A DNA stretch of 64,000 bases from Alphaproteobacteria bacterium (GTDB lineage Bacteria > Pseudomonadota > Alphaproteobacteria > UBA828): NCBI GenBank assembly GCA_965220745.1, contig CBDCQT010000005.1, positions 288,001 through 352,000 of the forward strand. The letters are read 5' to 3'. A program made the position numbers and the translations under genes. The notes under the pieces are model-generated. The model was not told the DNA's origin. It made no database searches and saw nothing but the letters and a program-made list of their open reading frames with translations. Shown piece by piece: positions 12,937-49,036 of this stretch (position 1 is its first letter; every line of letters begins with the position of its first letter).

Positions 12937-14064
12937 GTGAGCCGCACCGTCGACTGCAACTTCGACGGTGGCAACATCCGCTGCCTCGCCCTGCCCAAGA
13001 CCGGCCCGATCAGGCTCGAAATCGTGCCCGACGAAGGCGGAGCGTTCTTCCAGTGGTTCTACTTCCGGCTGCGCGGCGCGGCGGGTGAGGACTGCGTGCT
13101 CCGGATCGAGAACGCCGCCGGCGCCACCTACCCCGAGGGCTGGAAGGGCTACCGGGCCGTTGCGTCGGAGGATGGCGAGGACTGGCTGCGGGTCGCGACC
13201 GAGTACGACGGCACGGTGCTGACCATCCGGCATCGCCCCGCCGGAGACGAGGTGCGCTTCGCCTACTTCGTGCCCTATCCGATGGCGCGTCATGCGTCGC
13301 TTATCGCCCGCGTCGGGCGCTCGCCCCTGGTCGCCGTGCGCCGGCTCGGCACCACCCTCGACGGCGCGCCGCTCGACCTACTGGAGATCGGTGGGGCACG
13401 GGCGCGGACCTGCTGGATCATCGGGCGCCAGCATCCTGGCGAGACCATGGCCGAGTGGTGGATGGAGGGGTTTCTCGATGGGCTGCTGGACCCCTTCGAT
13501 GCCGCCGCCCGCACGCTGCTTGAGAAGGCGTGCTTCTGCGTGGTGCCGAACATGAACCCCGATGGCAGCAGCCGCGGCCACCTCAGGACCAACGCGGCGG
13601 GCGTCAATCTCAACCGCGCCTGGGCCTCGCCCAGCATGAAGGAGAGCCCGGAGGTCTATCTCGTCGGCGCCGAGATGGCGCGCACCGGGGTCGACTTCTG
13701 CCTCGATGTCCACGGCGACGAGGCGCTCCCCTACGCCTTCATCGCCGGGCCCGAAGGCATCCCGTCCTACACGCACGCGCTGGCGCGGAAGCAGGCGCGC
13801 TTCCAAGATGCACTCGCGGCGGCAAACCCGGACTTCCAGACCAAATACGGCTATCCGCCGACGCCGCCCGGCAAGGCCAATCTCGGCATCTGCGCCAACT
13901 ACGTGGCGGAGACTTACGGTTGCCTCGCCATGACCCTTGAACAGCCTTTCAAGGATGCGGCAAACGCGCCCGATCCCCGCCACGGCTGGTCGCCCGCGCA
14001 CTGCCGCAGGCTCGGCCACGGCTGCGTGGAGGCGCTCGCCGCCGTCATCGACGTGTTGCGCTAG
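12937..14064 (+). CDS. M14 zinc carboxypeptidase (cytosolic carboxypeptidase family)
   Basis: 'FDGGNI', 'QWFYFRL', 'RQHPGETMAEW', 'NPDG..RGHLRTNAAGVNLNR', 'LDVHGDE', 'MTLEQPFKD'. Confidence 0.9.
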   Translation: MSRTVDCNFDGGNIRCLALPKTGPIRLEIVPDEGGAFFQWFYFRLRGAAGEDCVLRIENAAGATYPEGWKGYRAVASEDGEDWLRVATEYDGTVLTIRHRPAGDEVRFAYFVPYPMARHASLIARVGRSPLVAVRRLGTTLDGAPLDLLEIGGARARTCWIIGRQHPGETMAEWWMEGFLDGLLDPFDAAARTLLEKACFCVVPNMNPDGSSRGHLRTNAAGVNLNRAWASPSMKESPEVYLVGAEMARTGVDFCLDVHGDEALPYAFIAGPEGIPSYTHALARKQARFQDALAAANPDFQTKYGYPPTPPGKANLGICANYVAETYGCLAMTLEQPFKDAANAPDPRHGWSPAHCRRLGHGCVEALAAVIDVLR

Positions 14065-14209
14065 GGCGTTTCCGTTACGCACGGAAACGCCCTCGCTCTT
14101 TGTCGCTCACGGCAGCCGGCCCACGGCCGGCGCCTCCGCGAGGGCGCCGCATGAGCGGCGGGCCGCGGTCGCGGCCTATCGCGCGTCCGCCGAAGACGGA
14201 CGCGCTCTA
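14062..14209 (+). repeat. Structured dispersed repeat (MITE/REP-like), copy 1
   Basis: TA-bounded, TAGGGCG...CGCTCTA; series of hairpins; core TGTCGCTCACGGCAGCCGGCC shared with copies at 33039, 40720 and 48896. Confidence 0.88.
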
Positions 14210-15514
14210 AGCTGGGCGGGCTGGCTCGGTGGCGAAGCCTGCGCTCGGCTTCGCGTCCGGCAGCCGCAGGTAGGCGAGGCAGGCCACCGCCACCAGGGCG
14301 GCGAGGAAGGCGAAGAATGCCTGGTAGGCGATGGCCGGCGCCGCGCCGTTCGTCGCGGGAAAGGCGCCGATGATGACGCCGCTCACGCCCTGCAGCACCG
14401 CCGGTCCGCCCATGAAGGCGATCGCCATGAGCGCCATGCCGCGTCCGGCGAGCCGGTCGGGCAGCAGAGAGCGCGCGTGGCCCGCGAGAATGATGTTGTA
14501 GGAGCCGCAGGCGCCGACGAGAGCAAGGAGGAGGATCACCGCCCAGGTGGGCAGCGCCGGCAGCGCGGCGAGCAATCCCAAGGCCGCGACGACGACGGCG
14601 GCAAGGACCAGAATGAGCCACTTGCGCATGTCCAGCCGGCGCTCCAGGGGGCCGAGCACGAGGTTCGCCACGATCAGCGTGGCAGCCATCACGAGGAGCG
14701 CGTTGCCGGCTTCCACTGGCTCCAGCCCGTGCCGGTCCGCGAGAAAGGGCCCACCCCAGAGGCCGAGGACGGTGATGACCACGGGATAGGACGCAAATCC
14801 CATCAGGATGAGCGTGGGGAAGCCCGGCGTCGCCAGCGCCGCGCGGACCCCTTTCAGGCTCTCGCGAATCCCCTCCGCCGGCGCCGCGCCACCCGGGTCG
14901 GCCGACGGGCGGTCGCGGGCCATCGCGTAGATGGCGATGGCGCCCACTGCGGTCAGCGCCGCCGCGCCCCAGAAGGCCGTGCGCCAGCCGAGGGTCTCCG
15001 CAATGGCGGCGAGCGGCGTGGTGGAGAGCAGCCCGCCGGCGCCGCCGATGGCGATCATCCGCCCCATCCAGGTGCTGAAGGAGGCGGCCGGCGCCCACTG
15101 GCCGAATAGGAAGAGCGAGCCCATCAGCACCACCGAGCAGCCGATGCCGAGCAGCAGGCGGCCCGCGATCAGCATCGCCTCGCCGTCCGCGAGGCCATAG
15201 AGGATCGAGCCCGCGATGGCGGCGGTGAGCACCACCGGCGCCGTGCGTCGCGCGCCGAAGCGGTCGAACAGCATGCCCACCGGGATCTGCGCCGCGCCGA
15301 AGGAGAGGAAGAACATGCCGGTGAGCAGACCGAGGGCCTCCGGCGAAAGACCGAACTCGGCGGTCAGGGTCTTGGCGATGACGGCGTTCGAGGCGCGGAA
15401 GAACTGGCTCAGCACGAACACCGCGCCGAAGCAAACGACGACCGCGACGAGCGGATGCAGCAGGCCGGGGCGCGCGTCGCCGCTCCCTTGCGGGGTGTCA
15501 GCCGGCGAGCGCAC
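14207..15514 (-). CDS. MFS transporter
   Basis: Multiple hydrophobic helices; motif A 'GMLFDRFGARR'; 'SQFFR'. Confidence 0.88.
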   Translation of the reverse strand: MRSPADTPQGSGDARPGLLHPLVAVVVCFGAVFVLSQFFRASNAVIAKTLTAEFGLSPEALGLLTGMFFLSFGAAQIPVGMLFDRFGARRTAPVVLTAAIAGSILYGLADGEAMLIAGRLLLGIGCSVVLMGSLFLFGQWAPAASFSTWMGRMIAIGGAGGLLSTTPLAAIAETLGWRTAFWGAAALTAVGAIAIYAMARDRPSADPGGAAPAEGIRESLKGVRAALATPGFPTLILMGFASYPVVITVLGLWGGPFLADRHGLEPVEAGNALLVMAATLIVANLVLGPLERRLDMRKWLILVLAAVVVAALGLLAALPALPTWAVILLLALVGACGSYNIILAGHARSLLPDRLAGRGMALMAIAFMGGPAVLQGVSGVIIGAFPATNGAAPAIAYQAFFAFLAALVAVACLAYLRLPDAKPSAGFATEPARPA

Positions 15515-16727
15515 CGATCCCCCAACCCGCCAGCGCGCCCAGGATCACCACCGCCCAGGGCGGCACCTTCCAGAACGCGAGCAGCACGAAAGCGGCGAGC
15601 CCGAGCGCGAGATCGGCGGTCGTGCGGATGCCGCCGATCCAGATCGGGTCGTAGAAGGCCGCACCCAGCAGGCCCACCACCGCCGCGTTGACGCCGAGCA
15701 TCGCGCGCTCCGCCAGCGCGAAGCGCCGCAGCCGCTCCCAGAATGGGAGCGCACCCACCACCAGGAGGAACGACGGCAGGAAGACCGCGCCGAGGCAGAG
15801 CAGGCCGCCCAGCACACCGCCCGGCCCGATGCCTGCGACGGCGCCGAGATAGGCCGCGAAGGTGAAGAGCGGCCCCGGCACCGCCTGCGCCGCGCCGTAG
15901 CCCGCGATGAAGGTCTCGTTCGCGACCCAGCCGGGCGGCACCACCTCCGCCTGCAAGAGCGGCAGCAGCACGTGGCCGCCGCCGAAGACCAGCGAGGCGG
16001 AGCGGTAGAAGCCGTCCACCAGCCGGAGCGCCTCCGCCGGCCAGGCGGCGGCGAGGATCGGGAGTGCGATGAGAAGCGCGAGGAAGAGCGCGAGCAGCAG
16101 AACCGCCAAGCGGCGGTCCACGGCGATGCCGAGCGAGGCGTCACGATCGCCGGCAACCGGGCGCAGGACCGCCAAGCCGGCGAGCGCGCCTGCGGCGATA
16201 ATCGCGACGTGGGTCACCACCGAGGGCGCCAGCACTGCGGCGATGGCGGCGAGCACCGCCACAGTGGCGCGCGGCGCGTCGGGGCAGAGGGTGCGCGCCA
16301 TGCTCCAGACGGCCTGCGCCACCACTGCGGCCGCGACGACTTTCAGCCCCTGCAGGGCGCCGGCGGGAATCGCCTCCTCGTTGGCCGCGACGCCGTAGCC
16401 GAAGGCCACCATGAGGACGGCCGAGGGCAGCGTGAAGCCCACCCACGCCGCCACCGCGCCGGGGAGCCCCGCCTTCGCGAGCCCGATGCCGATACCCACC
16501 TGGCTGGAGGTCGGCCCCGGCAGCATCTGGCAAAGCGCGACGAGGTCGGCATAGGCGCGGTCGTCGATCCAGCGGCGGCGCGCGACGAAGGCCTCGCGGA
16601 AGTAGCCGATATGCGCCACCGGCCCGCCGAACGAGGTCAGCCCCAGCAGGAGAAAGGCGATGAAGACGCGCGTGGTCGACTGGCGCCCCGCGCCGCTCCC
16701 GCCGCCATTGCTTCTGCCCTCGCCCAT
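15498..16727 (-). CDS. chrA: Chromate efflux transporter (long-chain CHR family)
   Basis: 'LGLTSFGGPVAHIGYFR', 'QMLPGPTSSQ', 'LVFGGGHVLLPLL', 'AQAVPGPLFTFAAY'. Confidence 0.92.
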   Translation of the reverse strand: MGEGRSNGGGSGAGRQSTTRVFIAFLLLGLTSFGGPVAHIGYFREAFVARRRWIDDRAYADLVALCQMLPGPTSSQVGIGIGLAKAGLPGAVAAWVGFTLPSAVLMVAFGYGVAANEEAIPAGALQGLKVVAAAVVAQAVWSMARTLCPDAPRATVAVLAAIAAVLAPSVVTHVAIIAAGALAGLAVLRPVAGDRDASLGIAVDRRLAVLLLALFLALLIALPILAAAWPAEALRLVDGFYRSASLVFGGGHVLLPLLQAEVVPPGWVANETFIAGYGAAQAVPGPLFTFAAYLGAVAGIGPGGVLGGLLCLGAVFLPSFLLVVGALPFWERLRRFALAERAMLGVNAAVVGLLGAAFYDPIWIGGIRTTADLALGLAAFVLLAFWKVPPWAVVILGALAGWGIGALAG

Positions 16728-16861
16728 GGGGACCGGGAATACGCCATTTCGCTGACGCAGACACGTCAAGCCGCCGCCCCGAGCCGGACGCGCCCTCAAA
16801 CTTTGCCGGGCCGGGTGATACGCTCCGCGCAGCGGACGACGCGGCGGCGGAAAGGCAGCTC

Positions 16862-17533
16862 ATGACAGGCGAAGACGTGCGGGCCGCCCCTTTCGAGGCG
16901 GCGCACTGGGACCTCGTGCCGGAGCGGACGGCGCTCGTCGTCATCGACGCGCAGAACGATTTTCTGCACGCGGACGGCTGGTATGCGACGCAGGGCATCG
17001 ACATCGGCCACATGCAGCGCTGCATCGAGCCGCTGAAGACGCTGCTCCCCGCCGCGCGAACCAAGAACATCCCCGTCGTCTGGACCCGCCACGGCATCCG
17101 GGGCGTCGAGGACGGCGGGCCGTTCATGCAGCTCCGCCCCTTCCTCAAGGACGGCGGGCTCAGGCGCGAGACCTGGGGCTGGGAGGTGCTGGCCGACCTC
17201 GCGCCCGAACCGGATGACTGGTATGTGGCGAAGACGCGGCTCAGCGCCTTCTACGGCACGGATCTGGAGGTGGTATTGCGGGGGCTTAGAGCGGAGACGG
17301 TGCTGATGACGGGCGTGCTCACCAATCAATGCGTCGCAGCGACCTCGAAGGACGCGATGTTCCGCGACTTCAAGCCCATCGTGATCGAGGAGTGCACGGG
17401 GACCACCATGCCGCACCTGCATGAGCCCGCGATCGAGATGATGCGGGTCGGCTGGGCCGAGGTCCGCGACCTGGAGTCCACGCTGAGCGAGATCAGGCAG
17501 ATGGCGACTGCCCGCATGGAGGACCCCCGGTAA
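16862..17533 (+). CDS. Cysteine hydrolase (isochorismatase family, RutB-like)
   Basis: 'ALVVIDAQNDF', 'KTRLSAFYGTDL', 'TGVLTNQCV'. Confidence 0.85.
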   Translation: MTGEDVRAAPFEAAHWDLVPERTALVVIDAQNDFLHADGWYATQGIDIGHMQRCIEPLKTLLPAARTKNIPVVWTRHGIRGVEDGGPFMQLRPFLKDGGLRRETWGWEVLADLAPEPDDWYVAKTRLSAFYGTDLEVVLRGLRAETVLMTGVLTNQCVAATSKDAMFRDFKPIVIEECTGTTMPHLHEPAIEMMRVGWAEVRDLESTLSEIRQMATARMEDPR

Positions 17534-19980
17534 TGGCTCAGGATCTTCCCCGTTCGGCCCGCGTCGTCATCGTCGGCGGCGGGGTGGTGGGCTGCTCCGT
17601 CGCCTATCACTTGGCGCGCGCAGGCGTCTCCGATGTGGTGCTGCTGGAGCGCCGCGAGCTCACCTGCGGCACCACCTGGCACGCCGCCGGCCTCATCGGC
17701 CAGCTGCGCCCGTCGAAGCGCATGACCGAGCTCGCCAAGTACACGGCTGAGCTTTACACGGGCCTGGAAGCGGAGACCGGCCAGGCGACCGGCTTCAAGC
17801 AGAACGGCTCGATCTCGCTCGCCACCCACGATGGCCGCTTCGAGGAGCTGAAGCGCAGCGCCTCGATGGCCAAGGTGTTCGACCTGCGCGTCGACGTGCT
17901 CGGCCCCGACGAGATCAAGGAGCGCTACCCGCTGATCAGCGTCGACGACGTGGTGGGCGGCATCTTCATCCCCTCCGACGGTCAGACCAACCCCATCGAC
18001 GTGAGCCGCGCGCTCGCCAAGGGGGCGCGGGACGGCGGGGTGCTCGTCCGCGAAAACACACCCGTCACCGCCATCGCCCACAACGGCGAGCGGGTCACGG
18101 GCGTCGAGACGCCGGAAGGCCCCATCGCGGCGGAGACGGTGGTGCTCTCCGCCGGCATGTGGACCCGCGCGCTTGCGGCCACCATCGGCGTCCACGTGCC
18201 GCTGCACGCCTGCGAGCACTTCTACATCATGACCGATCCGTTCGAAGGCGTGACCCCGGACCTGCCCGTGCTGCGCGACTACGGCGGCTGCGCCTACTAC
18301 AAGGAGGACGCCGGCAAGATCCTGCTCGGCGCCTTCGAGCCCGACGCCAAGCCCTGGGGCATGGACGGCATCCCCGAGGACTTCTGCTTCGACCAGTTGC
18401 CGGACGATTTCGAGCACTTCGAGCCTGTGCTGATGCACGCGCTGAAGCGGATGCCCGCGCTGGCCGACGCGGGCATCCAGACCTTCTTCTGCGGGCCCGA
18501 GAGTTTTACGCCCGACGATCGCTACCACCTTGGCGAGGCGCCGGGGCTCGCCGGTTGCTACATCGCGGCCGGTTTCAACTCCATCGGCATCCAGTCCGCC
18601 GGCGGCGCAGGCAAGGTGCTTGCCGAGTGCATCAAGACCGGCCGGCCGCTCCTCGACATGTGGGACGTGGACATCCGCCGCAACCTGCCCTTCCAGACCA
18701 ACCGGCGCTACCTGCGTGAGCGGGTGAGCGAGACCCTCGGCCTGCTCTACGACGACCACTGGCCCTTCCGCCAGTACGCGACGGCGCGGGGCGTGCGCCG
18801 CTCGCCCTTCCACGATCGCCTTGTGGCGCGCGGTGCCTGCCATGGCGAGGCCTTCGGCTGGGAGCGGCCCAACTGGTACGCGACGGACGGCATGGAGCCC
18901 CGCTACGAATACAGCTTCGGCCGGCAGAACTGGTTCGACGCGAGCGCCGAGGAGCACCGCGCGGTGCGGGAGGGCGTGGGCCTCTTCGACCAGACCTCGT
19001 TCGCCAAGTTCCGCCTCCAGGGTCGCGACGCGGCGGAGGTGTTGGGCCGGGTTTGCGCCAACGAGGTGGACGTGCTGCCGGGCCGCATCGTCTACACCCA
19101 GTGGCTCAACGACGCGGGCGGCATCGAGGCAGACCTCACCGTCACCCGGCTCGATGACGACGACTATCTGATCGTGACCTCGGGCGAGTTCCAGGTGCGG
19201 GATGCTCTTTGGCTTCAGCGCCACATCCCGGAGGGCGCGCACGCGGTGCTCACCGATGTGACCTCGGGGATCGCCGTGCTCGGCGTCATGGGCCCTCGGT
19301 CCCGCGACCTGCTGCAATCCTTGAGCCCGGACGACCTCTCTAACGAGGCCTTCCCCTTCGGCACCAGCCGGGAGATCGAGCTCGGCCTGGGGTACGTCCG
19401 CGCCGCGCGCATCACCTACGTGGGCGAGCTCGGCTGGGAGCTCTACATCCCCACCGAGTTCGCGGCCGGCATCTACGATGGGCTGGTGGAAGCCGGGGAG
19501 GGCGTGGGGCTCCGCCACGTCGGCATGCACGCCATGAACTCGCTCAGGATCGAGAAGGCCTACCGCCACTACGGCCACGACATTAGCGACGCCGACACGC
19601 CGCTGGAGGCGGGGCTCGGCTTCGCGGTCAAGCTCGACAAGCCCGCGCCCTTCATCGGGCGCGATGCGCTGTTGCGCCAGCGGGAGGAAGGCGTGCGCCA
19701 GCGGCTGGTGCAGTTCCTGCTCGAAGACCCGGAGCCGCTGCTCTACCACAACGAGCCGATCTGGCGGGACGATACGATCTGCGGCTACGTGCGCTCCGGC
19801 ATGTACGGCCACACCCTCGGCGGCGCGGTTGGCCTCGGCTACGTGGAGAATGCGGCGGGCGTCGACGCCGACTACGTGACCGCCGGCCGCTACGAGATCG
19901 AGGTCGCGGGCGTCCGCTACCCGGCGAAGGCCTCCCTCCGCCCCCTCTACGACCCCACGTCGAGCCGCATCAAGGCCTGA
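17533..19980 (+). CDS. GcvT-family FAD-dependent amine oxidoreductase (sarcosine/dimethylglycine dehydrogenase-like)
   Basis: 'IVGGGVVG', 'GTTWHAAG', 'GPESFTPD', 'GWERPNW', 'ITYVGELGWE', 'SLRIEKAYR'. Confidence 0.92.
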   Translation: MAQDLPRSARVVIVGGGVVGCSVAYHLARAGVSDVVLLERRELTCGTTWHAAGLIGQLRPSKRMTELAKYTAELYTGLEAETGQATGFKQNGSISLATHDGRFEELKRSASMAKVFDLRVDVLGPDEIKERYPLISVDDVVGGIFIPSDGQTNPIDVSRALAKGARDGGVLVRENTPVTAIAHNGERVTGVETPEGPIAAETVVLSAGMWTRALAATIGVHVPLHACEHFYIMTDPFEGVTPDLPVLRDYGGCAYYKEDAGKILLGAFEPDAKPWGMDGIPEDFCFDQLPDDFEHFEPVLMHALKRMPALADAGIQTFFCGPESFTPDDRYHLGEAPGLAGCYIAAGFNSIGIQSAGGAGKVLAECIKTGRPLLDMWDVDIRRNLPFQTNRRYLRERVSETLGLLYDDHWPFRQYATARGVRRSPFHDRLVARGACHGEAFGWERPNWYATDGMEPRYEYSFGRQNWFDASAEEHRAVREGVGLFDQTSFAKFRLQGRDAAEVLGRVCANEVDVLPGRIVYTQWLNDAGGIEADLTVTRLDDDDYLIVTSGEFQVRDALWLQRHIPEGAHAVLTDVTSGIAVLGVMGPRSRDLLQSLSPDDLSNEAFPFGTSREIELGLGYVRAARITYVGELGWELYIPTEFAAGIYDGLVEAGEGVGLRHVGMHAMNSLRIEKAYRHYGHDISDADTPLEAGLGFAVKLDKPAPFIGRDALLRQREEGVRQRLVQFLLEDPEPLLYHNEPIWRDDTICGYVRSGMYGHTLGGAVGLGYVENAAGVDADYVTAGRYEIEVAGVRYPAKASLRPLYDPTSSRIKA

Positions 19981-20020
19981 CGTTCCGGGCCGTGGTGTGA
20001 TGGAAAGAGCACCGGCGGCA

Positions 20021-20488
20021 CTATGCGGCCAGTGCCCATTCCCCCCGAGGACCGCTGGAGAGTGCGAAGGTCAGCTCGTGCGTTCTGTCCAACGCGTCCT
20101 CGCGGTCGGCGATACGGCGTAAAGTATCGCGGAGCGTTTCATCGGCTGCATTGCCGTGCTCGAGGTAGAGCCTCCTGATCAGGGCGTCCGCCGCTCTCGG
20201 GCAGCTTGTCTTTTCGGCCTCCCACCTGTGGACGGTCTGCTCGCTCACGTCCAGCAGGTGCGCGAGCGTCGCCTGGGACATGAGCATCTCCTGACGCAGG
20301 AACCTCAGCTCCTTGCCGCTCAGAGCCTTCCCGTGGCGGCTCACGTGCTCGCCGATGGCCCGATGCAGTGCATCGATGTCCCTGATTGCGATGGTTCTGC
20401 CGCGCGGCGAAGCGTTCCGCTCGAAGCCGTTCAGCAGAAAGACATGGTCCAGACCGCATTCCGTGTAGTGATATCGCTCATCAGGCAT
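20021..20488 (-). CDS. XRE-family HTH transcriptional regulator, putative antitoxin (MqsA/HigA-like)
   Basis: 'YHYTECGLDHVFLLNGF', 'LSGKELRFLRQEMLMSQATLAHLLDVSEQTVHRWE'. Confidence 0.8.
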   Translation of the reverse strand: MPDERYHYTECGLDHVFLLNGFERNASPRGRTIAIRDIDALHRAIGEHVSRHGKALSGKELRFLRQEMLMSQATLAHLLDVSEQTVHRWEAEKTSCPRAADALIRRLYLEHGNAADETLRDTLRRIADREDALDRTHELTFALSSGPRGEWALAA

Positions 20489-20511
20489 GGACCTCCCTCC
20501 GGTATCCGCCG

Positions 20512-20841
20512 TCACCATGCGGTGATGCATTCGACGTGATCCGCGCACACGGCCACGACCACGTTGACACGCTGGCCCGCAACCTTGCGGCGCATGTGGA
20601 TCCGCCAATCTCCGAACTCGTCGAGCTCCGGGCGACCGACCGCTCTTCCCGATTTCAGCACCTCCATCACTAGCCGCACGGTGATGCCTCGCTCTCTCAT
20701 GCGCTGTCTGAAATGCGGCTCGCTCATGCGAACGTTCAGGCTGTCCGTCAGAGCGAGCGAATGAACGCGGCTCACCAGCTGATCTGCCGATGGGGCCTCT
20801 GCCCCTGACATGGAAAAGGGGACAAACGGTGAGTCCGACAC
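20512..20841 (-). CDS. DUF4258-like small protein, putative toxin
   Basis: 'HFRQRMRERGIT...V.EVLKSG' and C-terminal 'ITAW' resemble DUF4258; upstream of HTH gene; start uncertain (GTG 20841 or ATG 20811). Confidence 0.7.
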   Translation of the reverse strand: MSDSPFVPFSMSGAEAPSADQLVSRVHSLALTDSLNVRMSEPHFRQRMRERGITVRLVMEVLKSGRAVGRPELDEFGDWRIHMRRKVAGQRVNVVVAVCADHVECITAW

Positions 20842-20865
20842 AAACCTACCAATATGGTAGGTTTG
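20841..20865. promoter_or_regulatory. Perfect 11-bp inverted repeat, putative operator of the TA-like pair
   Basis: CAAACCTACCA-ATA-TGGTAGGTTTG; minus-strand TTGACG at 20877-20872 just upstream. Confidence 0.65.
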
Positions 20866-20989
20866 ACAGGCCGTCAAGACTTTTGCACCCGGCGCCCAAT
20901 CCGCCCAGCACTGGGCAGCTTTGCCCGCGTGCCGATGGCAGGCGAGACTAGGCGAGAGCGAAACGTCGCAAGGCGCGAGGGGGAGAAGG

Positions 20990-22585
20990 ATGGCGTGGGA
21001 TTACATCATTGTCGGTGCGGGCTCGGCCGGGTGCGTGCTGGCGCACCGGCTCTCCGCCAAGCCGGGGAACAAGGTCCTGCTGCTGGAAGGCGGCGGCAAT
21101 GACACCTCCCCCCTGGTGCGGATCCCCGCCGGCGAGATCAAGGCCATCCTGAATCCTCGCTTCAACTGGATGTACATGAGCGAGCCCGACCCCACGCTCA
21201 ACGGGCGCGACGCCATGTGGCCGGGCGGCAAGGTGCTCGGCGGGTCGAGCTCCATCAACGGCATGATCTACCTGCGCGGCCAGCACGAGGACTACGACGA
21301 CTGGGCCCGCCTCGTCGGCAACACCGGCGCGTGGAGCTACCAGGACGTGCTGCCCTACTTCAAGCGCATGGAGACCAACCCGCTCGGCCCGAGCGAATAC
21401 CACGGGGACAGCGGCCCGCTCGTCGTCTCCGACGTGCCGACGCCCCATCCGCTGGTCCGCGTCTTCATCGAGGCGGCCAAGGAGCTCGGCATCCCCTTCA
21501 ATCCGGACGTGAACGGCGAGCGCCAGGAAGGCGCCGGGCCCCATCAGGGGACGATCCGCTTCGGCCGCCGCAACAGCACGGCGCGCGCGTATCTGAGGCC
21601 GGTGATGGACAGGCCCAATCTCAGCGTCGAGACCGAGGCGCGGGTGGACAAGGTGCTGTTCGAAGAGGGGCGCGCCTGCGCGGTCGTCTACAGCCGGGGC
21701 GGCGAGAGGCGCGAGGCCACGGCGGACGGCGAGATCATCCTCTCCGCCGGCGCCATCGCCTCGCCGGCGATCCTGCTGCGCTCAGGCATCGGGCCCGCAG
21801 CCGATCTCTCCGATTTCGGCATTCCCGTGGTCGCGGAGTCGCCGGGGGTCGGCAGCAACCTGCAGGAGCATCCGGTCGCCTGGGTGGCGGGCTATGTCGA
21901 CATCAGCACCTACAACACCGAAGTCACGGCCGCCGGCTGGGTGAAGCACGGCCTCAACTGGCTGCTGCGCGGCAAGGGGCCGGCCGCGAGCCCCATCTCC
22001 CAGGCGGTGGCCTTCGTCCGCACCCGGCCGGAGGAGGAGGACCGCCCGGACATCCAGCTCCACTTCACCCCGACCGGCTACGAGTTCGGCCCGGACGGGA
22101 TCAAGCTCCTGGACCGCCCCGGCGTCACCATTCCGGCCAACGTCTGCCGGCCCAAGAGCCGCAGCAGGCTCACGCTCCGCTCGGCCGACCCGAACGAGCC
22201 GCCGCGCATCTTCTCGAAGCTGCTCGACGACGAGGACGACGTGAGGCGCATGGTCGACGGCTGCAAGGTCTCGCGCGCGATCTTCGAGAGCAAGGCCTTC
22301 AAGCCGCACTTCCAGGGCCTGTTCCTGCCCGCGCCCGACGTGCGGAGCGATGACGAGCTCGAAGCCTACGTCCGGCAATACACGCTGCCGGCCTATCATC
22401 CCGTCGGCACCTGCAAGATGGGCATCGACGACATGGCGGTGGTGGACCCGGAGCTGCGGGTGCGCGGGGTCCAGGGACTGCGCGTGATCGACGCTTCGAT
22501 CATGCCGGTCGTGCCGAGCGCCAACACCAATGCGCCGTCCATCATGGTCGGCGAGAAAGGCTCGGACCTGGTGCTGGGCAGTTAG
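20990..22585 (+). CDS. GMC family oxidoreductase (choline dehydrogenase-like)
   Basis: '[15 protein letters not shown]', '[18 protein letters not shown]', '[10 protein letters not shown]', '[10 protein letters not shown]...NTNAP'. Confidence 0.92.
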
Positions 22586-24389: not shown

Positions 24390-24421
24390 CGACGGTCTCC
24401 CTTGTCTTCTGGTTGGCGCAA

Positions 24422-25195: not shown

Positions 25196-25217
25196 CGACG
25201 CCTCCCTTTCGATCCGT

Positions 25218-26553: not shown

Positions 26554-28287
<1,734 letters not shown>

Positions 28288-28447: not shown

Positions 28448-28450
28448 TCA

Positions 28451-31604: not shown

Positions 31605-33041
31605 ATGCAAGGCAAGGTCATGGCAGGCCAAAGGGTACGCCGGCTCCGCCGGGAGCGCGGGCTGACCCAGGCGCGCATGGCAGCGCAACTCGGAATCTCC
31701 ACGAGTTACCTCAATCTGATCGAGCGCAGCCAGCGCCCGGTGACGGTTCCTTTCCTGCTCAAGCTCGGCCAGGCCTTCGACATCGACCTTCAGCGCTTCG
31801 CGGAGGACGACGAAGGGCGGGTCACCGCTCAGCTCCGGGAGGTCTTCGGCGATCCGCTGTTCGCACGCAGCCAGGTGAGCGACCAGGACATCCGCGACGC
31901 GGCCCAGGCAAGCCCGGCGCTCGGCGATGCCGTCATCCGCCTCTTCGGCGCCTACCGCGACCTGCTGGAGAACACGGCGAACATTGCAGAGGGTCTCGGC
32001 GACGCTGCGACGAAAGGCACGCCGGCGCCGTTAACGAGGGCTGCCGGAATTCCGAACGACGCGGTGCATGATTTTATCCAGGCCCGGTCCGGCTATTTTC
32101 CCGAGCTGGAGGAGGCCGCCGAGCAGCTCTGGGCCGACGCGGGCCTCGATGCCGATGGCCTCTACGAGGGGTTGCGCGCCGTCCTCACGGACGCCCACGG
32201 CCTTAAGGTCCGCATCATGCCCGCGCACGTCATGCACGACCTGGTCCGGCGCTACGACCGCCACGGCCGGCGCGTGCTGCTTTCCGACGCGCTGGCGCCG
32301 GAGGAACGGGTCTTCCAACTGGCCTTTCAGGCCGCGGTGCTCGGCTGGCGCGATCTGCTGGACGACATCGCCGGCGAAGCGGGCCTTCAAGGGGAGGCGC
32401 GCCACCTCCTGGTGATCGAGCTCGCAAGCTATTTCGCCGCGGCCTGCGTTATGCCCTACGAGCGCTTCCACGAGGCCGCCGAGGCGCTCGAATACGACAT
32501 CGATCTCTTGGGCCGGCGCTTCGGTGCGTCGTTCGAGCACGTCTGCCGCCGGCTTGTCACCCTGCAGCGGCCGGGAGCCAAGGGCGTGCCGTTCTTCCTC
32601 GTCCACCTCGACTGCGCCGGCAACGTGCTGCGCCGCTTCGACGCGGGCGGCTTCCGCTTCGCCCGCTTCGGCGGGCTCTGTCCGCGCTGGGGCGTGCACC
32701 GCGCCTTTCAGTCTCAAGGGGAGAACCGCCTCGACCTGGTCGAGATGCCCGACGGCGCGCGCTTCCTCACCATCGCCCGCGCGCTCTCGCGGCCGGGCGC
32801 CGGCCACGCGCTGCCGGGCCAGCAACTGGTCATTGCCATCGGCTGCCCGCTCTCCCACGCGAGCCGTCTGGTCTACGGCGCGGGCCTCGACCTCGAGCGC
32901 CCTGCGGGGGCCGTTCCCATCGGCATCAACTGTCGGCTGTGCGATCGCGCCGACTGCACGGCGCGCGCCTTCCCGCCGCCGGGCCGCCGCCTGATCGTGG
33001 ACGAGAACCAGCAGGGACTGACGCCCTACTTCTTCTCCTAG
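31605..33041 (+). CDS. ramB: Short-chain fatty acyl-CoA regulator (ScfR/RamB family; XRE HTH + IrrE-like + C-terminal domain)
   Basis: 'GLTQARMAAQLGISTSYLNLIE..QRPVT', 'YFAAA..MPY', 'RRLVTLQRPG.KGVPF', 'IGINCRLCDR..C..RAFPP'; divergent from aceBA. Confidence 0.85.
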   Translation: MQGKVMAGQRVRRLRRERGLTQARMAAQLGISTSYLNLIERSQRPVTVPFLLKLGQAFDIDLQRFAEDDEGRVTAQLREVFGDPLFARSQVSDQDIRDAAQASPALGDAVIRLFGAYRDLLENTANIAEGLGDAATKGTPAPLTRAAGIPNDAVHDFIQARSGYFPELEEAAEQLWADAGLDADGLYEGLRAVLTDAHGLKVRIMPAHVMHDLVRRYDRHGRRVLLSDALAPEERVFQLAFQAAVLGWRDLLDDIAGEAGLQGEARHLLVIELASYFAAACVMPYERFHEAAEALEYDIDLLGRRFGASFEHVCRRLVTLQRPGAKGVPFFLVHLDCAGNVLRRFDAGGFRFARFGGLCPRWGVHRAFQSQGENRLDLVEMPDGARFLTIARALSRPGAGHALPGQQLVIAIGCPLSHASRLVYGAGLDLERPAGAVPIGINCRLCDRADCTARAFPPPGRRLIVDENQQGLTPYFFS

Positions 33042-33214
33042 AGCGTTTCCGTCTTGCACGGAAACGCTCTAGCTTCTTTGTCGTTCACGGCAGCCGGCCT
33101 ACGGCCGGCGCCTCCGCGTCGCGCGTCCACGCGCGCGGGCGCGCGATGGCGCCGCAGGAGCGGCGGGCCGCGGTTGCGGCCTGTCGCATGTCCGTCAAAG
33201 ACGGACATGCTCTA
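33039..33214 (+). repeat. Structured dispersed repeat, copy 2
   Basis: TAGAGCG...TGCTCTA ends; same hairpin series as copy 1 with an extra hairpin insert. Confidence 0.88.
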
Positions 33215-33235
33215 AGCCACTCCCCGTCCGCCACC

Positions 33236-33486
33236 CCGGACCATGGTGCGGTGCACGGCGCGCGGTGGTTGCGCCAGTATCGCGCCATGAGGAGCAAGTT
33301 CATTCAGTGCGAAAGCGAGCGGGCCGCGGTGGGCGATCGGACGTTCAAGCAGTCCGCACCGTTGTCCGCGTCGCAACGAGAGACGGCCGCCGCTTTGGTC
33401 CACCTTGGGCCGCGCGTCTCGGACCACCTTGGGCCACCTTGGGCCGCTTTGGGCCGGAGTAGGCCGGAATAGGCCGCCTTAAAACC
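33236..33486 (+). repeat. Second dispersed element, copy A (21-bp head plus 10-bp-periodic tail)
   Basis: CCGGACCATGGTGCGGTGCAC-N23-TCGCGCCATGA also present inverted at 51827-51881; CCACCTTGGG-type repeats at ~33400-33480. Confidence 0.6.
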
Positions 33487-34460: not shown

Positions 34461-34481
34461 GTTCCTGCTCCAAGCGCCCGT

Positions 34482-38337: not shown

Positions 38338-38613
38338 GGGAGCTTCTGCTATCCCTTGGTTGCACCCTTGAGCACCGCCTGGGCGAGCAGCGCCTCGCGC
38401 CAGAGCGCGACCAGCCCCTTCTGGTCGAGATACCTGGGGTGGAGGCTCCAGAGGCGCATTCTCTGACAATTGAGCTCGACGAACGGCGCCGCAAGCAACC
38501 ATGTGTGGTAGAAAGGTGCCGATCACCCACAACATGTCGTGCGATCGTTGGCAGGCGCACGGCGGCTCCCTATAGTATGTGTCGGCGCCACCACGCGATC
38601 GCTGCACCGTTCA

Positions 38614-40701: not shown

Positions 40702-40719
40702 GGGCGCGCGGGCGCGCCT

Positions 40720-40830
40720 GTCTTATCGCTCACGGCAGCCGGCCTTTGGCCGGCGCCTCCGCGAGGGCGCCGCTTAAGCGGCGGGCCGCGGAGGCGGCCT
40801 GTCGCGCGTTCGTCAGCGACGAACGCGCTC
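40720..40830 (+). repeat. Structured dispersed repeat, copy 3 (lacks the first hairpin)
   Basis: TTATCGCTCACGGCAGCCGGCC...GCGCGTTCGTC-AGC-GACGAACGCGC. Confidence 0.85.
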
Positions 40831-40845
40831 CACGCTCGGGCTGGG

Positions 40846-41820
40846 TCAGAAGTCGGCAGTGACGCGGCCGTCCTGGAGCAGCACCTGGAACGCCTGGAAG
40901 GTCTCGGCGGTGCCATCCTCCAGAGAAATTGCACCGTAGTCGCCGATATGTGCACGCAGCAGCGCATCCTGGTCCTCCATCGGGAAGGGCAGAGGATCGC
41001 CGCTCGCCCGCACCCGCGCGCCGGGAGCAAGCCGTCGGATCGCGTCCAGCCCATCCTCGATCGGGGTGACGGTCCCGTTACAGTCGAAGGCAGGTGCGCC
41101 GTCGCCGTCCCGCGAGATGGCCTGGAGGAAGGCTGCCGCGACCTCGCCCGCGTAGAGATATGAGATCGACCCGGTGAAGGGCACCTCGTAGTCGCGCCCG
41201 GCTGCCGCTGCCAGGATCGCGACCGTGGTCTTCGACGTCATGCCCTGGTCGCGGCCGACGCCGTAGACGATGCCGGGTCGGAGCCCGATGCTCGGCACCG
41301 CCCAGTCCTGCCAGTAGGTCCGGGCGATCGCTTCGTCGCAGGCCTTGTAGGCGCCATAGAGGGTGGAGGCGTAGCCGCTCTCCGCCGGCGCGCCGTGGGC
41401 GGCGATGGAGCTCGCGTAGGCAAGGCGGTGCACGCCATGGCGCCGGGCCGCCTCGAACACGGCCACCGTGCCGACCACGTTGACGCGAGCGCCTGCGACG
41501 GGGTCCGCCTTGCAGAAGGGCACCTGCAGGGCCGCGAGGTGCAGGATCGCCCCGATCCCGTGCTCCTCCACCACCCGATCGACGGCCTCGGCATCGGCAA
41601 TATCCCCCTCCACCCAGGTTACTTGTGCGAGCTCTTCCTCCGACATCAAGAGTCCAGGCCGGCGGCGGCTCGAGTCGAGGTCGAAGGAGACGGCGGGCAC
41701 GCCGGCACGCACGAGGATCGCGAGCGCCCAGCTCCCGATGCAGCCGCTGGAGCCGGTCACCAGCACCGGCCGGTCGAAATCCTCCTTGCGCGCGGTGAAG
41801 CGGCTGTTCAGCGAGTCCAT
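40846..41820 (-). CDS. NAD-dependent epimerase/dehydratase
   Basis: 'VTGSSGCIG', 'HLAALQVP', 'LYGAYK'. Confidence 0.87.
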   Translation of the reverse strand: MDSLNSRFTARKEDFDRPVLVTGSSGCIGSWALAILVRAGVPAVSFDLDSSRRRPGLLMSEEELAQVTWVEGDIADAEAVDRVVEEHGIGAILHLAALQVPFCKADPVAGARVNVVGTVAVFEAARRHGVHRLAYASSIAAHGAPAESGYASTLYGAYKACDEAIARTYWQDWAVPSIGLRPGIVYGVGRDQGMTSKTTVAILAAAAGRDYEVPFTGSISYLYAGEVAAAFLQAISRDGDGAPAFDCNGTVTPIEDGLDAIRRLAPGARVRASGDPLPFPMEDQDALLRAHIGDYGAISLEDGTAETFQAFQVLLQDGRVTADF

Positions 41821-41981
41821 GGCTCTCACTCGGTGGTGTGGAGGGGTCGCATGGCGAGGCGCGGAGTCTTGCACGCGATGGGGACTGCGGCCAACGGCCA
41901 CCCGTGCGGGTCTGTTTCCAGATGTAGCCCGTGGCTATCATCGCGCTGCTTGTGCTTTCGGCTCGTGAGGGAAGTGGAGTC

Positions 41982-42908
41982 ATGACGGAAACCTCGGCGG
42001 CGCGGCGCAAGACGATCGTCCTCCTCGACGGCGGTGTCGGGCAGGAGCTCTATCGCCGGAGCACGCGGCCAGCGGCGCCGCTCTGGTCCGTCCAGGTGAT
42101 GATGGACGAGCCGCACCTCGTCGAGGCCGTGCATCTCGACTTCATCGAGGCCGGCGCGCGGATCATCACGGTCAACACCTACACGGCGACGCCCCACAGG
42201 CTCACCCGCGAGGGCTTGCCCGACAAGTTCGAGGCCCTGCAGTGTGCCGCCTTCGCCGCAGCGGCTTCCGCCCGCGAGAAGAGCGGGCAGGCGGTCAGGA
42301 TCGCCGGCTGTCTGCCGCCGCTGGTCGGGAGCTACAGAGCGGATCTGACGCCGCCGGAGGACGAATGCCTCGCGAACTACCGCAGAATCGTCGCGGTGCA
42401 GGCTGACCACGTGGATCTGTTCCTGTGCGAGACCATGCTGTCCGCAGCGGAGGCACGCGCGGCGACGGTGGCCGCGGCCGAGAGCGGCAAGCCAGTCTGG
42501 ACGGCGCTCTCGGTCGACGATGCCGACGGCTCCGTGCTGCGCTCGGGCGAGGGGGTTGCCGAAGGAGCACGGGCCGCCGTAGATGCGGGCGCAGACGCGG
42601 TGCTGATCAATTGCTCCAGCCCCGAGGCGGTGGCCACCGCCATGCCGCTGCTGGCCGGCATCGGCGTTCCCTTCGGCGGCTACGCCAACGGCTTCGTCTC
42701 CATAGCCGCGATGCAGCCGGGCGGAACCGTCGAGGCATTGAAGGCGCGCGACGACTTGGGCCCTGCAACCTACGCCGACCACGCGATGGGCTGGATCGCC
42801 TCGGGCGCCGCCATCGTCGGCGGCTGCTGCGAGATCGGGCCCGGCCATATCGCCGCGCTCGGCCAGCGGCTCGCGGCGGAAGGGCACGACGTGGCAGCCG
42901 CGCTCTAA
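41982..42908 (+). CDS. Homocysteine S-methyltransferase family protein
   Basis: '[10 protein letters not shown]', 'INCSSPE', 'GYANGF', '[10 protein letters not shown]'. Confidence 0.9.
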
Positions 42909-43897
42909 GCCAGAGCAGCGCTCGCTTCGGCGGTGATCTCGTAGGAGCGCAGACGGGCCGCGGGATCGTGGATGTTGGAGGTCACCATGATCTCGTCGAC
43001 GCCGGTGTGCTTCGCGAATGTCGCGAGGCGCTCCGCCACAAGTTCGGGCGTGCCCGAGGCCGAACAGGTGAACCAGCGTTTCAGGATGGACTGTTCCTGC
43101 GCATCCAGGCCGGCCTCGAAGTCTCGCACCGGGCGGGGCAGGGGGCCCGGCACGCCCCGGTGCAGGTTGAGCACCGATTGCTGGGCCGAGCTCCGCACGT
43201 AAGCCGCCTCATCGTCGCTATCGGCGGCGAAAACATTGAACCCCGCCATCACGTAGGGTGCGTCGCACTGTTCCGAGGGGCGGAACTGCTCGTGGTAGAC
43301 CTCGATCGCCTGCATCAGCGCGGCGGGCGCGAAGTGCGACGCGAAACCGTAGGGCAGCCCCAGCGCAGCGGCGAGCTGGGCGCCGAAGAGGCTTGAGCCC
43401 AAGATCCAGATCGGCACGTTGAGGCCCGCCCCCGGCACCGCCCGCACGCGCCGCCCCGGCTCCGATGGCTGGAAATAGCTCTGCAGCTCCACCACGTCGC
43501 GCGGGAAGTCGTTGACGTCCCCGGTGAGCGTGCGCCTGAGCGCGTGGGACGTCATCTGGTCCGTTCCCGGCGCGCGGCCGATGCCGAGGTCGATCCGGCC
43601 CGGATAAAGCGATTCCAGGGTGCCGAACTGCTCGGCGATCACCAGCGGCGCGTGGTTGGGGAGCATGATGCCGCCGGCGCCGACGCGAATGGTCTCGGTG
43701 GCGCCCGCGACGTGGCCGATCAGCACCGCCGTTGCGGCGCTGCCGATCCCGGCCATGTTGTGATGCTCTGCCAGCCAATAGCGACGGAAGCCCAGGCGCT
43801 CCACGTGGCGCGCGAGGCCCACCGTGTTGCGGAAGGCCTGCGCCGCGTCCGCGCCTTCCGGGATCGGCGAAAGATCGAGAACCGAGAGAGCGACCAT
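42905..43897 (-). CDS. LLM-class flavin-dependent oxidoreductase (YhbW-like)
   Basis: 'LSVLDLSP', 'YWLAEHHN', '[11 protein letters not shown]', '[11 protein letters not shown]', 'ILGSS'. Confidence 0.9.
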
Positions 43898-43919
43898 GGA
43901 CCGGGCGTCGTGCCTCGCT

Positions 43920-46085
<2,166 letters not shown>

Positions 46086-46204
46086 GGCGCACTATATGGC
46101 TGCCCCAAGCCCGGACGCCAGAGGGCGCTTTTGAGGGTCCTGCCGTTCTGGACAAACGCCATTGTCGGGCCGATAGTGCGGGCCGATTGCCCCGGAGGAT
46201 GTGG

Positions 46205-46597
46205 ATGTATCAGAAGGAAACGCGCGCCATTGAAATCACGGTCAAGCCGTTCTATCTGGAGGAGCAGTCCGAGCCCGACGACAGCCACTTCGTATTCGCC
46301 TATCACATCCGGATCCAGAACAACGGCGGGGACGTGGTTCAGCTCTTGAACCGCTATTGGCAAATCACTGACGGCCTCGGCCGCATCCAGGAGGTGCGGG
46401 GGCCCGGAGTCGTCGGCGAGCAGCCGGTGCTGCGGCCGGGGGAAGCGTTCGAGTACACGAGCGGATGCCCGCTCAACACCGCGACCGGCATCATGGTCGG
46501 CACCTATGAGATGGAAACGCTGGACGGCGAGCGCTTCGATGTGGATATTCCCGCATTCTCGCTCGACGCGCCGGATGCGCCCGTGCGGCTCAACTGA
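46205..46597 (+). CDS. apaG: ApaG protein
   Basis: 'FAYHIRIQN', 'RYWQITDG', 'GPGVVGEQP', 'YTSGCPL'. Confidence 0.94.
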
Positions 46598-46708
46598 GAT
46601 CGCGCAGCCGCCGGTACGCTGACCAGACAGCCGAACGACGCCGAGACCGCCCCGCTGCGGTCTCGCAGTACCGTACAGCCGGCCCGGAGCCGGAGAAGGA
46701 GACCGCCT

Positions 46709-47359
46709 GTGGACGACAGCCAGCCCGCGCCGCTTGCCGGCGCCGATGACGACACGACCCAGGGCGCGGTCGCGCGACCGACGAGGGACGAGGCCGAGCA
46801 GGCGGTGCGCGTCCTGCTCCGCTGGGCCGGCGATGACCCCGAGCGCGAGGGGCTGCTCGATACGCCCAAGCGGGTCGCGCGCGCCTACGAGGAGTATTTC
46901 CGGGGCTACAGCCAGGACCCTTATGCGATCCTGCGCCGCACTTTCGAGGAGACCAACGGCTACGACGAGATGGTCGTTCTCCGCGACATCGATTTCCGCT
47001 CGCACTGCGAGCACCACGTCGCGCCGATCGTCGGCCGCGCCCACATCGGTTACTTGCCGGACCACCGCGTAATTGGCATCAGCAAGCTCGCGCGCGTGGT
47101 CGACGTCTACGCCCGCCGCCTGCAGATTCAGGAGAAGCTGACCGCCGAGATCGCCGACGCGATCGAGACGGTCCTGCAACCGCGCGGCGTCGGAGTCGTG
47201 ATCGAGGCCGCGCACCACTGCATGACGACCCGAGGCGTGGCCAAGGAGGGAGTCCTCATGGTGACGAGCCGGATGCTCGGCACGTTTCGTACGGATCCGA
47301 AGACCCGCCGTGAGTTTCTCAGCATGATCGGGAACCCGGCGTCCTCGGTGCCGCGCTAG
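46709..47359 (+). CDS. folE: GTP cyclohydrolase I
   Basis: '[11 protein letters not shown]', 'SHCEHH', 'GISKLARVV...RRLQIQE', 'HHCMTTRG'. Confidence 0.96.
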
Positions 47360-47413
47360 GACGCCCGGCCCGGCTGAGCCGCCGGGCAGCCGCCAGGGCT
47401 CACGAGCCGCCCG

Positions 47414-48871
47414 ATGGGCTCCGTCAGGGACTTCCGGCCGGTTCTCTTCGTGGTCGGCATTCTGCTGATCACGCTGTCGCTGGCGATGGCATTGCCGGCC
47501 ATCGCCGACGCAGTGACAGGCAATCCCCACTGGCGGGTCTTTCTCGCCGCGAGCGTCTTCACGCTCTTCATCGGCACCTGCCTGGTGCTCTCCAACAGGA
47601 TGCGGGAGCCGCGGCTGACGGTGCGTCAGGCCTTCGTGCTCACCACCTTGAGCTGGGTTATCGTGGCCGCCTTCGCCGCGCTGCCGTTCGCCTTCTCCGA
47701 CCTCAACCTGAGCTACACCGACGGCTATTTCGAGGCGATGTCGGGGCTCACCACGACCGGGTCCACGGTCATCGTCGGGCTCGACGATGCGCCGGCCGGC
47801 ATTCTGCTGTGGCGCGCGCTGCTGCAGTGGCTCGGCGGCATCGGCATCATCGTCACGGCCATCGCGATCCTGCCGATGCTGCGGGTCGGCGGCATGCAGC
47901 TCTTCCACACGGAATCCTCGGACAGCTCCGAGAAGGTGCTGCCCCGCGCCGCCCAGCTCGCCGGAGCCATCGGCATGGTGTACCTCGGGCTCACGATCAG
48001 CAACGGAATCGCCTACTGGGCCGCCGGCATGACGCCGTTCGAGGCGGTGTGCCACGCGATGACGACCATCGCCACCGGCGGCTTCTCGACTTCGGACGCC
48101 TCGCTCGGCCACTTCAACAACGACGCCATTGAGGGCATCGCCACCGTCTACATGGTGCTGGGCTCGCTCCCCTTCGTACTCTACTTGCAGGCTGTGCGCG
48201 GCGGTTGGGGGGCGCTCGCGCGCGACACGCAGGTGCGCTGGTTTTTCGGGCTGATTCTGTTCGCACTGCTCTCGCTCGCGGGCTGGCTGATGGCGGCCAA
48301 CGACGCCGCGCCGACCGATGCGTTTCGCGAAGCGGCCTTCAACGGCATCTCGATACTGACGGGCACAGGCTATTCCACCGCCGACTTCTCCGCCTGGGGC
48401 ACCTTCGCGCTTCCCGTCTTTACGCTCCTCATGTTTATCGGCGGTTGTACCGGCTCGACCACGGGCGGGGTGAAGGTCTTCCGAATTCAGGTTCTCGCGT
48501 CCACGTCCTTGTCGCAGATCCGCCAGCTCATCCAGCCGCACGGCGTCTTCATCAGCAAGTTCAACCGGCGGCCGATTCCGGAAAGCGTGTCGCCGGCGGT
48601 GATGGGGTTCTTCTTCCTGTTCATGGTCAGCTTCGGGCTGATCGCCATGGGGCTCGCGCTGATGGACCTCGACTACGTGACCAGCATCAGCGGCGCGGCC
48701 ACGGCCATCGCCAATGTCGGCCCCGGCCTGGGCGAGACCATCGGCCCTGCCGGCTCCTTCCAGCCCCTGCCGGAGCCGGCGAAGTGGCTGCTGTCGGCCG
48801 CCATGCTGCTCGGCCGGCTCGAGTTGTTCACAGTGCTGGTGCTGTTCGTGCCCCGCTTCTGGCGGGACTAG
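47414..48871 (+). CDS. trkH: Trk potassium uptake membrane protein
   Basis: 'FEAMSGLTTTGST', 'LQWLGGIGII', 'ATGGFST', 'GSTTGGVK', 'NVGPGLG', 'LGRLE'. Confidence 0.95.
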   Translation: MGSVRDFRPVLFVVGILLITLSLAMALPAIADAVTGNPHWRVFLAASVFTLFIGTCLVLSNRMREPRLTVRQAFVLTTLSWVIVAAFAALPFAFSDLNLSYTDGYFEAMSGLTTTGSTVIVGLDDAPAGILLWRALLQWLGGIGIIVTAIAILPMLRVGGMQLFHTESSDSSEKVLPRAAQLAGAIGMVYLGLTISNGIAYWAAGMTPFEAVCHAMTTIATGGFSTSDASLGHFNNDAIEGIATVYMVLGSLPFVLYLQAVRGGWGALARDTQVRWFFGLILFALLSLAGWLMAANDAAPTDAFREAAFNGISILTGTGYSTADFSAWGTFALPVFTLLMFIGGCTGSTTGGVKVFRIQVLASTSLSQIRQLIQPHGVFISKFNRRPIPESVSPAVMGFFFLFMVSFGLIAMGLALMDLDYVTSISGAATAIANVGPGLGETIGPAGSFQPLPEPAKWLLSAAMLLGRLELFTVLVLFVPRFWRD

Positions 48872-48895
48872 GCAGGTCTGGAGCCCATGTGCTCG

Positions 48896-49036
48896 GAGCG
48901 AGTCCGTCCTCGACGGACTCGCGACAGGCCGCGACCGCGGCCCGCCGCGAAAGCGGCGCCCTCGCGGAGGCGCCGGCCGTCGCGCCCGTAGGCGCGCGAG
49001 ATCGCGCGACGGCCGGCTGCCGTGAGCGATAAAGAC
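48896..49036 (-). repeat. Structured dispersed repeat, copy 4 (inverted)
   Basis: Reverse complement reads TTTATCGCTCACGGCAGCCGGCC...GCGAGTCCGTC-GAG-GACGGACTCGC; contains a branched insert in its GCCGGCC stem. Confidence 0.85.

Follow-up and report, generated by a model that had tools for sequence, protein, structure and literature searches.

What is the short structured repeat that occurs four times in a 64,000-nucleotide stretch of an alphaproteobacterial genome (Alphaproteobacteria bacterium of the UBA828 lineage, GenBank assembly GCA_965220745.1, contig CBDCQT010000005.1, positions 288,001 to 352,000; hereafter the window), how did it reach its sites, and why do its copies lie between convergent genes? 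The original prediction, made from the DNA letters, described a REP/MITE-like (repetitive extragenic palindrome/miniature inverted-repeat transposable element) family of structured RNA that might act as a 3' stabiliser or bidirectional terminator. All four copies are present where it placed them, and the assignment to a REP/MITE-like family is correct and can be sharpened: the window repeats are copies of a non-coding element of ~150 bases, bounded by TA, with ends of IS630 type, and its presence differs between related species, with both filled and empty sites. We consider it probable (roughly 0.65) that this is a mobile repeat moved in trans by an ISRel6/ISRm10-like transposase, with a conserved structured core. 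The type of element is ordinary, i.e. an IS630-type MITE with an architecture like that of CIR or RIME repeats, and the structured core is the unexplained part.

Anatomy of the element

The complete element measures 148 bp from TA to TA and comprises a left arm, a T-rich linker, a 75-nt core of hairpins and a right arm (Table 1); sizes range from 148 to 200 bp. A fold-back arm (TAGAGC..TCCG) stands at both ends, the second (3') arm reading TAGAGC..TCCGTC on the opposite strand, and the two arms, joined by the linker, fold independently of each other. The arms are insertion hot spots. The TT(A/G)TCG.. head, previously taken as the start of the element, lies within it: in copies 1 and 2 a 33-bp fold-back arm that had been missed starts 40 bp before the head, at TAG(G/A)GCGTTTCCGT. 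Nor is length variation restricted to loops, since copies 3 and 4 have lost this left arm. The hairpin loops (ATGA/AGGA/TTAA/TTTC and GGTC/GGTT/GGAG/GGTC), the paired terminal stems of the four copies and the inserts in copies 2 and 4 were all found as described. The GGCGCC..GGCGCC stem is also present, but it shares bases with both adjacent stems and its register is shifted in a common variant. Folding z-scores of the window copies are -4.7 to -6.6 against shuffles, on either strand and as RNA or DNA.

By our own gene calls, all four window copies lie between convergent genes, the end of the right-hand gene of copy 2 being 336 bp off. The terminal TAGs of copy 1 are the stop codons of both neighbouring genes, and a RamB-like regulator gene ends at the first TAG of copy 2. 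Only the left arm of copy 2, followed by a T-tract on the plus strand, looked terminator-like within the single region scanned.

Table 1 Coordinates of the element copies, the parts of copy 1 and the IS630-family insertion sequence within the window.
Feature	Position	Strand	Description
Copy 1	14062..14209	+	Full 148-bp element; occupies the whole intergenic gap
Left arm of copy 1	14062..14094	+	Fold-back TAG(G/A)GCGTTTCCGT-N5-ACGGAAACGC..; resembles IS630 right end
Core of copy 1	14103..14176	+	75-nt, G+C-rich; unpaired head TCGCTCACG and 3 or 4 hairpins; found class-wide
Right arm of copy 1	14181..14209	+	Fold-back; minus strand is TAGAGCGCGTCCGTC
Copy 2	33039..33214	+	Full element; internal insert 2 at ~33118-33147
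Copy 3	40720..40833	+	Lacks left arm; between parE and NAD-dependent epimerase gene
Copy 4	48894..49036	-	Lacks left arm; internal insert 1 at ~48979-49010; between trkH-family and SDR genes
IS630-family insertion sequence	52675..53733	+	Two open reading frames connected through an A9 run; bounded by TA

Parts of the element also occur in other arrangements. Copies without a left arm often start at the inner TAG of that arm, and a lone 33-bp right-arm hairpin with TA on either side was seen at G000 C12:784928-784960. In G011 (L119) and in G000 C12 near 714550-714700, the inner CTAG of the left arm harbours another small element, whose ends are GGAA..TTCC.

Filled and empty sites

The site of copy 1 is filled in only 1 of 12 syntenic relatives and that of copy 3 in 2 of 12; the copy 2 site is filled in 3 of the 5 relatives fetched, and the copy 4 site in 3 of 15, one of which lacks the insert while another is internally deleted. 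In the reciprocal comparison, counterpart positions in this genome were assigned to 65 of the 91 copies from relatives, and we count 24 distinct full-length sites that are filled in relatives and empty here. The element is therefore subject to insertion polymorphism between species. Exactly the 4 bases predicted for a 2-bp duplication are retained at 8 of these 24 empty sites, in relatives that are 3-20% diverged, and TA is centred in 4 of the 8 (CTAA twice, TTAT and GTAG). Contigs that skip copy 1 come from diverged strains, and no precise empty site was seen among them.

In a set of 98 independent sites, 35 of 62 left ends and 56 of 96 right ends retain TA. The base outside the right TA varies freely (CTAA 24, CTAG 18, CTAC 6 and CTAT 6 of 96), and because it does so across independent sites, the data favour a 2-bp (TA) over a 4-bp duplication. 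A 4-bp CTAG duplication is also disfavoured by the left and right 4-mers, which differ, and by the CTAA, TTAT and GTAG empty sites.

The element was found in 18 of 20 congeners at 85-93% identity, in 1 to 80 copies. By their titles, the named records that contain the core motif are assemblies of uncultured Alphaproteobacteria or Rhodospirillales, and the motif also occurs in two short contigs of one bin labelled Chloroflexota. Viral contigs gave no matches to the 19-nt core motif, and none of the plasmid records covered 80% of the element.

The ends match a subgroup of IS630

A transposase encoded elsewhere, either of the RAYT (REP-associated tyrosine transposase) type or of the IS630 family, had been suggested as a possible partner. 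No link to a RAYT was found, and the ends of the element match those of an IS630 from the same genus. There are six DDE_3 matches in this genome, one of them within the window. The window IS630 ends in TAGAGC-N4-T(T/C)CG, one base longer than the arms of the element, and its protein is ~70% identical to ISRm10-1; it is sister to the subgroup that provides the end match. This latter subgroup, present in G009, G013 and G012, has ends of the form TAGAGC-N3-TCCG, and its right end goes on TTTTAGACGGAAC. Compared over 26 positions, the right end of the G009 IS630 agrees with the left-arm consensus at 21, with the right-arm consensus at 19 and with the best single copy at 23, against 13-14/26 for the window IS630 and 6-8/26 for unrelated IS630 subgroups. 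On both end length and this score, the window IS630 was rejected as the exact partner. Both ends of the G009-type IS630 persist in this genome as relics (94% over 263 bp and 90% over 124 bp), and like ends are seen in named IS630s of Sinorhizobium, Rhizobium and Methylovirgula plasmids.

In short, the element has its end sequence and TA target in common with the ISRel6/ISRm10-1-like members of the IS630 family. Unlike them, it has no transposase, and both of its arms are right-end-like and self-palindromic. The strict left-arm pattern was matched in 0 of 300 other genomes of the class, and the arms are therefore lineage-specific.

The window IS630 is intact-looking, with one helix-turn-helix and one DDE reading frame, and has five related copies in the genome. 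One related copy shares its TA with a 168-bp MITE of the same end type (G000 C12:36383-36551), and at another locus (L177) an IS630 has inserted at the terminal TA of the element.

Stop codons and convergent genes

A profile search of the genome gave 49 matches at E <= 0.01, and the 38 with at least 45 bits were taken as copies. All 38 lie outside the genes called with our own hexamer gene caller (3990 genes, 85% coverage). The prediction that copies always lie between convergent genes holds for the four in the window but not for the whole genome, where 24 copies are convergent, 10 tandem and 4 divergent. The proposed enrichment in convergent intergenic regions is nonetheless clear, the background being 13-18% convergent. 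In relatives, 31 of 43 classified independent sites are convergent (9 more were unclassifiable); the counts are 11/16 in G009 and 12/24 in G020, for which 30 of 80 copies were examined. By our reading of the table, the element supplies the stops of both neighbours in six copies of this genome, window copy 1 among them, and in relatives overlap with the stop of the facing gene is seen for tail ends in 22 of 40 cases and for full head ends in 8 of 14.

We compared this placement with nulls drawn from the genome's own TA sites. The convergent share is 18% for any intergenic TA, 32% for stop codons only, 30% and 43% for sites more than 100 bp and 200 bp from starts, 20% for YTAR, and 49% for YTAR combined with 200 bp from starts (p 0.06 against the observed 24/38). 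Target choice and purging account for much of the convergent bias, perhaps not all. Because a TA target in stop codons and avoidance of promoters largely give the same result, convergent placement is weak evidence for the stabiliser or terminator role first proposed. In tandem pairs the tail points toward the upstream gene 18 times versus 3 (p 0.0015), with 4 versus 1 in G009 and 6 versus 4 in G020, and the polarity of a terminator-like left arm of the kind seen in copy 2 is a plausible cause of this bias. Two RNA runs yielded only contigs covering a small share of the stretch, from which transcript ends or levels are not readable.

Several cores (L014, L015, L249 and L263) lie directly downstream of tRNA-like 3' ends (..CACCA).

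Covariation within the genus and across families

Within the genus, a set of 34 full-length copies from independent sites shows double changes in 43 cells versus 8.6 when shuffled. Eleven of the 12 covarying pairs fall in the arms and one in the core (1/26 core pairs). The inner half of the left arm mirrors site-private outer changes that spoil the terminal repeat in 26 of 42 cases, and the arm even mirrors host bases outside the TA, at position -1 (42/64 versus 31.4, p 0.0008) and at -2 (32 versus 24.1, p 0.005), with nothing past position -2. The simplest reading is that one arm half may have been re-copied onto the other after insertion, an alternative being selection for a longer stem. The genus covariation, mostly arm-based and partly mirroring the host flank, seems to point to copying at the level of DNA. 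The compensatory changes that had been cited as a sign of selection on structure belong to the terminal arm, where such mirroring suffices, and the idea of structural selection finds its support instead in the 75-nt core when compared across families. That compensatory arm changes can come from DNA copying is a warning to RNA searches that rely on covariation.

Copies at orthologous sites can have private marks in common and yet differ in their 27-32-bp insert, once with insert 1 against insert 2. This points to exchange of internal modules between copies, probably by gene conversion. The hairpin module of insert 2 also belongs to another repeat family of the genome. Identity between genus copies is 92% in the core and 77% and 85% in the arms.

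Other genera in the family and the order also have the core, either flanked by different arms or arranged in tandem. Among 21 order-level cores (4 of them from one array and so not independent), double changes occur in 33 cells versus 7.9 when shuffled. Of 150 other genomes of the class searched with a covariance model, 7, all from different families, contain the core, usually in the same arm-core-arm layout with unrelated arms and replaced stems. Since the core recurs with different arms and with its stems replaced, its fold appears to be constrained, and these comparisons support selection on structure across families. The core is probably older than the arms. It stands out as a 75-nt unit with a fold conserved across families, for which a cut-and-paste MITE should have no need.

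The sequence T-N-C forms one hairpin loop in 65 of the 83 sites readable there, and as a junction triplet it occurs in 95/95 readable genus sites and 21/21 order-level cores, the loop rule being broken in two other families. On the minus strand both become G-N-A, which according to the relevant part of PMC3201870 makes an exceptionally stable loop in DNA if C-G closes it. These loops hint that the core may act as folded DNA. An orientation of the element by replication strand is not supported: there is no bias in the single-contig G018 (431/500 shuffles as high), and that in the present genome (G000) is weak (26:12 on a noisy skew).

Tandem core arrays in other genera (L221, L213, L215, L217 and L219) also include pairs at ~115 bp and, in one case, two full elements with one common TA. 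In two Rhizobium strains, a CTAG-bounded 23S rRNA helix-9 intervening sequence (L068 1180-1425, L236 270-545) holds a core-like stretch with the head and two hairpins. An origin of the core from the genome's own 23S rRNA was rejected, there being no helix-9 intervening sequence in this genome.

Proposed mechanism and alternatives

We propose that an IS630-family transposase of the ISRel6/ISRm10-like subgroup would move the element in trans, duplicating its TA target. Each end reads TA|G, and an element landing on the TA of a stop codon (TAA or TAG) would thus restore a TAG stop. Insertions in coding or promoter DNA would be purged; survivors would gather at 3' ends, and so between convergent genes, because the TA|G ends rebuild stops while other insertions are lost. 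The copies are probably old. After insertion each arm would have been partly re-copied onto itself by template switching, and internal modules exchanged among copies by gene conversion. The core would be an older structured passenger, its fold selected in single strand; whether it acts as folded DNA during propagation or as the 3' end of host transcripts is a guess with about even chances.

Several observations weigh against this proposal. Copy number does not track IS630 presence: G002 (67 copies) and G020 (80 copies) have no DDE_3 match, G009 has 21 near-identical insertion sequence copies and 22 old elements, and G012 has one of each. There are no young copies, nearest neighbours differing by 7-23 substitutions (G000, G009, G020). 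A DDE_3 match occurs in none of five class-level and two of five order-level carriers, where fragmented assemblies may have dropped insertion sequences. The core is also found without arms, in tandem arrays such as six units at an 88-bp period (L221 1507-2020), and a cut-and-paste transposase gives no reason for its conservation. The convergent excess stays highly significant under 4 of the 6 TA nulls, and 16 of the 24 empty sites are not clean, being blurred by divergence. Mobilisation by IS630 may have been episodic and in the past.

Alternatively, the element could be kept mainly as a signal in host RNA that stabilises or terminates 3' ends, with selection for this role, rather than target choice, setting the convergent placement and keeping all stems. 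The cross-family covariation of the core stems, the higher conservation of core than arms (0.92 versus 0.77 and 0.85), the terminator-like segment in copy 2, the tail orientation in tandem pairs and the convergent excess left over under most nulls are all in keeping with it. However, each window site is empty in most relatives, leaving gaps of 6-70 bp in which no substitute is seen, many copies have lost the left arm, the tandem bias is only 6 versus 4 in G020, and the mirrored host-flank bases are simpler as DNA copying. A search of Rfam gave no hits at gathering score in the window and, across 5 loci, nothing overlapping the element with E up to 1. Taken together, a host RNA signal appears unlikely. 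A reading without any selection on structure, in which the palindromes arise by template switching and the core is kept by gene conversion, fits the host-flank mirroring, the swapping of inserts, a right-arm hairpin found at the left-arm position (L357) and the near-invariance of core stems within the genus. It is very unlikely, since cores of different families have replaced their stems but retain the helix lengths, the unpaired head and the T-N-C junction, a geometry that would not survive neutral mirroring.

Two further alternatives give the single strand a larger part. In a REP-like element, an HUH enzyme (RAYT/TIRYT) or another host enzyme would read the core, the IS630-like ends being captured relics. 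Arm-less core arrays in other genera, the persistence of the core while arms vary between families, the minus-strand G-N-A loops (stable in DNA according to the relevant part of PMC3201870), carriers without IS630 and one Y1 gene in G204 with a copy just upstream would agree with this. Yet this genome and 3 of 5 other carriers lack Y1_Tnp, two of the three Y1 genes have no nearby copy, and the third possesses separate inverted repeats of its own, with the copy looking as if inserted at CTAG; the replication-strand data and the TA-bounded ends also speak against it. We rejected RAYT/TIRYT as the mover, no linked Y1 HUH transposase flanked by the repeat having been found, and hold the whole account to be highly improbable. 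The other possibility is that these are class-wide fold-back MITEs: the arms would fold a single strand into double-stranded IS630 ends, the core, with its G-N-A loops on one strand, would fold the rest, and a DDE transposase would move the folded strand, with lineages swapping arms to suit the resident IS630 and keeping the core. We regard this as doubtful, although if true it would identify IS630 as what moves the repeats of the CIR/RIME/Bru-RS class.

TIRYT-type Y1 genes with their own inverted repeats were seen in G204 and G131 (L276 1245-2222, L277 and L278); for one, in G204, an inserted full element separates the left repeat from the start codon.

Comparison with known repeats

A close precedent for trans mobilisation is RUP of Streptococcus pneumoniae, proposed, according to the part of PMC2229807 that treats it, to be a MITE moved by IS630-Spn1 on the basis of end similarity. 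By that account RUP and the present element are both short and intergenic, with TA termini, ends like those of a co-resident IS630 and indirect evidence. They differ in that each end of our element is its own fold-back arm, and in the G+C-rich, class-wide structured core between the arms. In architecture the element is nearer to CIR1/CIR2 of Caulobacter and Brucella (Chen and Shapiro 2003, as cited in the same part of review PMC2229807, where mobility is called unknown), which are likewise alphaproteobacterial and intergenic, with TA termini and 5' and 3' parts that fold independently around a linker. CIR is 110 bp compared to ~150 bp here, where the linker holds the 75-nt hairpin core, and the passage in PMC2229807 gives CIR a conserved GANTC in the arm loop. 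Any GANTC occurs in just 17 of 38 copies of our element, in variant stems or insert 1, with 0.33 expected per 150 bp. The IS630 end match is a further difference, CIR mobility being left open in that part of PMC2229807. REP/BIME (bacterial interspersed mosaic element) repeats with RAYT, TIRtrons (PMC3733652) and SPRITE (PMC3184786), as portrayed in the parts of these papers drawn on here, share with the element a convergent or 3' bias, hairpins and tandem clusters; unlike them, it has no GTAG/CGTC foot and no linked Y1 transposase, and it has TA-bounded IS630-type ends.

In the literature searched, with subscription journals mostly outside the search, we found no account of the present element family and no IS630 link for CIR, RIME or Bru-RS. 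A two-arm repeat of Rhizobiaceae (L067, L208-L210) has in common with the element a left arm TAGAGCATTTCCG..CGGAAA.GCTCTA, a T-rich linker and TA ends, but it lacks the hairpin core and its right arm is different. This repeat may be RIME1 or Bru-RS-like. The present data link a two-arm alphaproteobacterial repeat to one particular IS630 subgroup, of which a congeneric genome has multiple intact copies, and the mobility of CIR-like repeats is therefore testable in vitro.

At least five further dispersed repeat families, with 39, 32, 24, 21 and 17 members, are present in the genome; one of them adjoins copy 2 on its right (window positions 33235-33290), and another has the hairpin module of insert 2 in common with the element.

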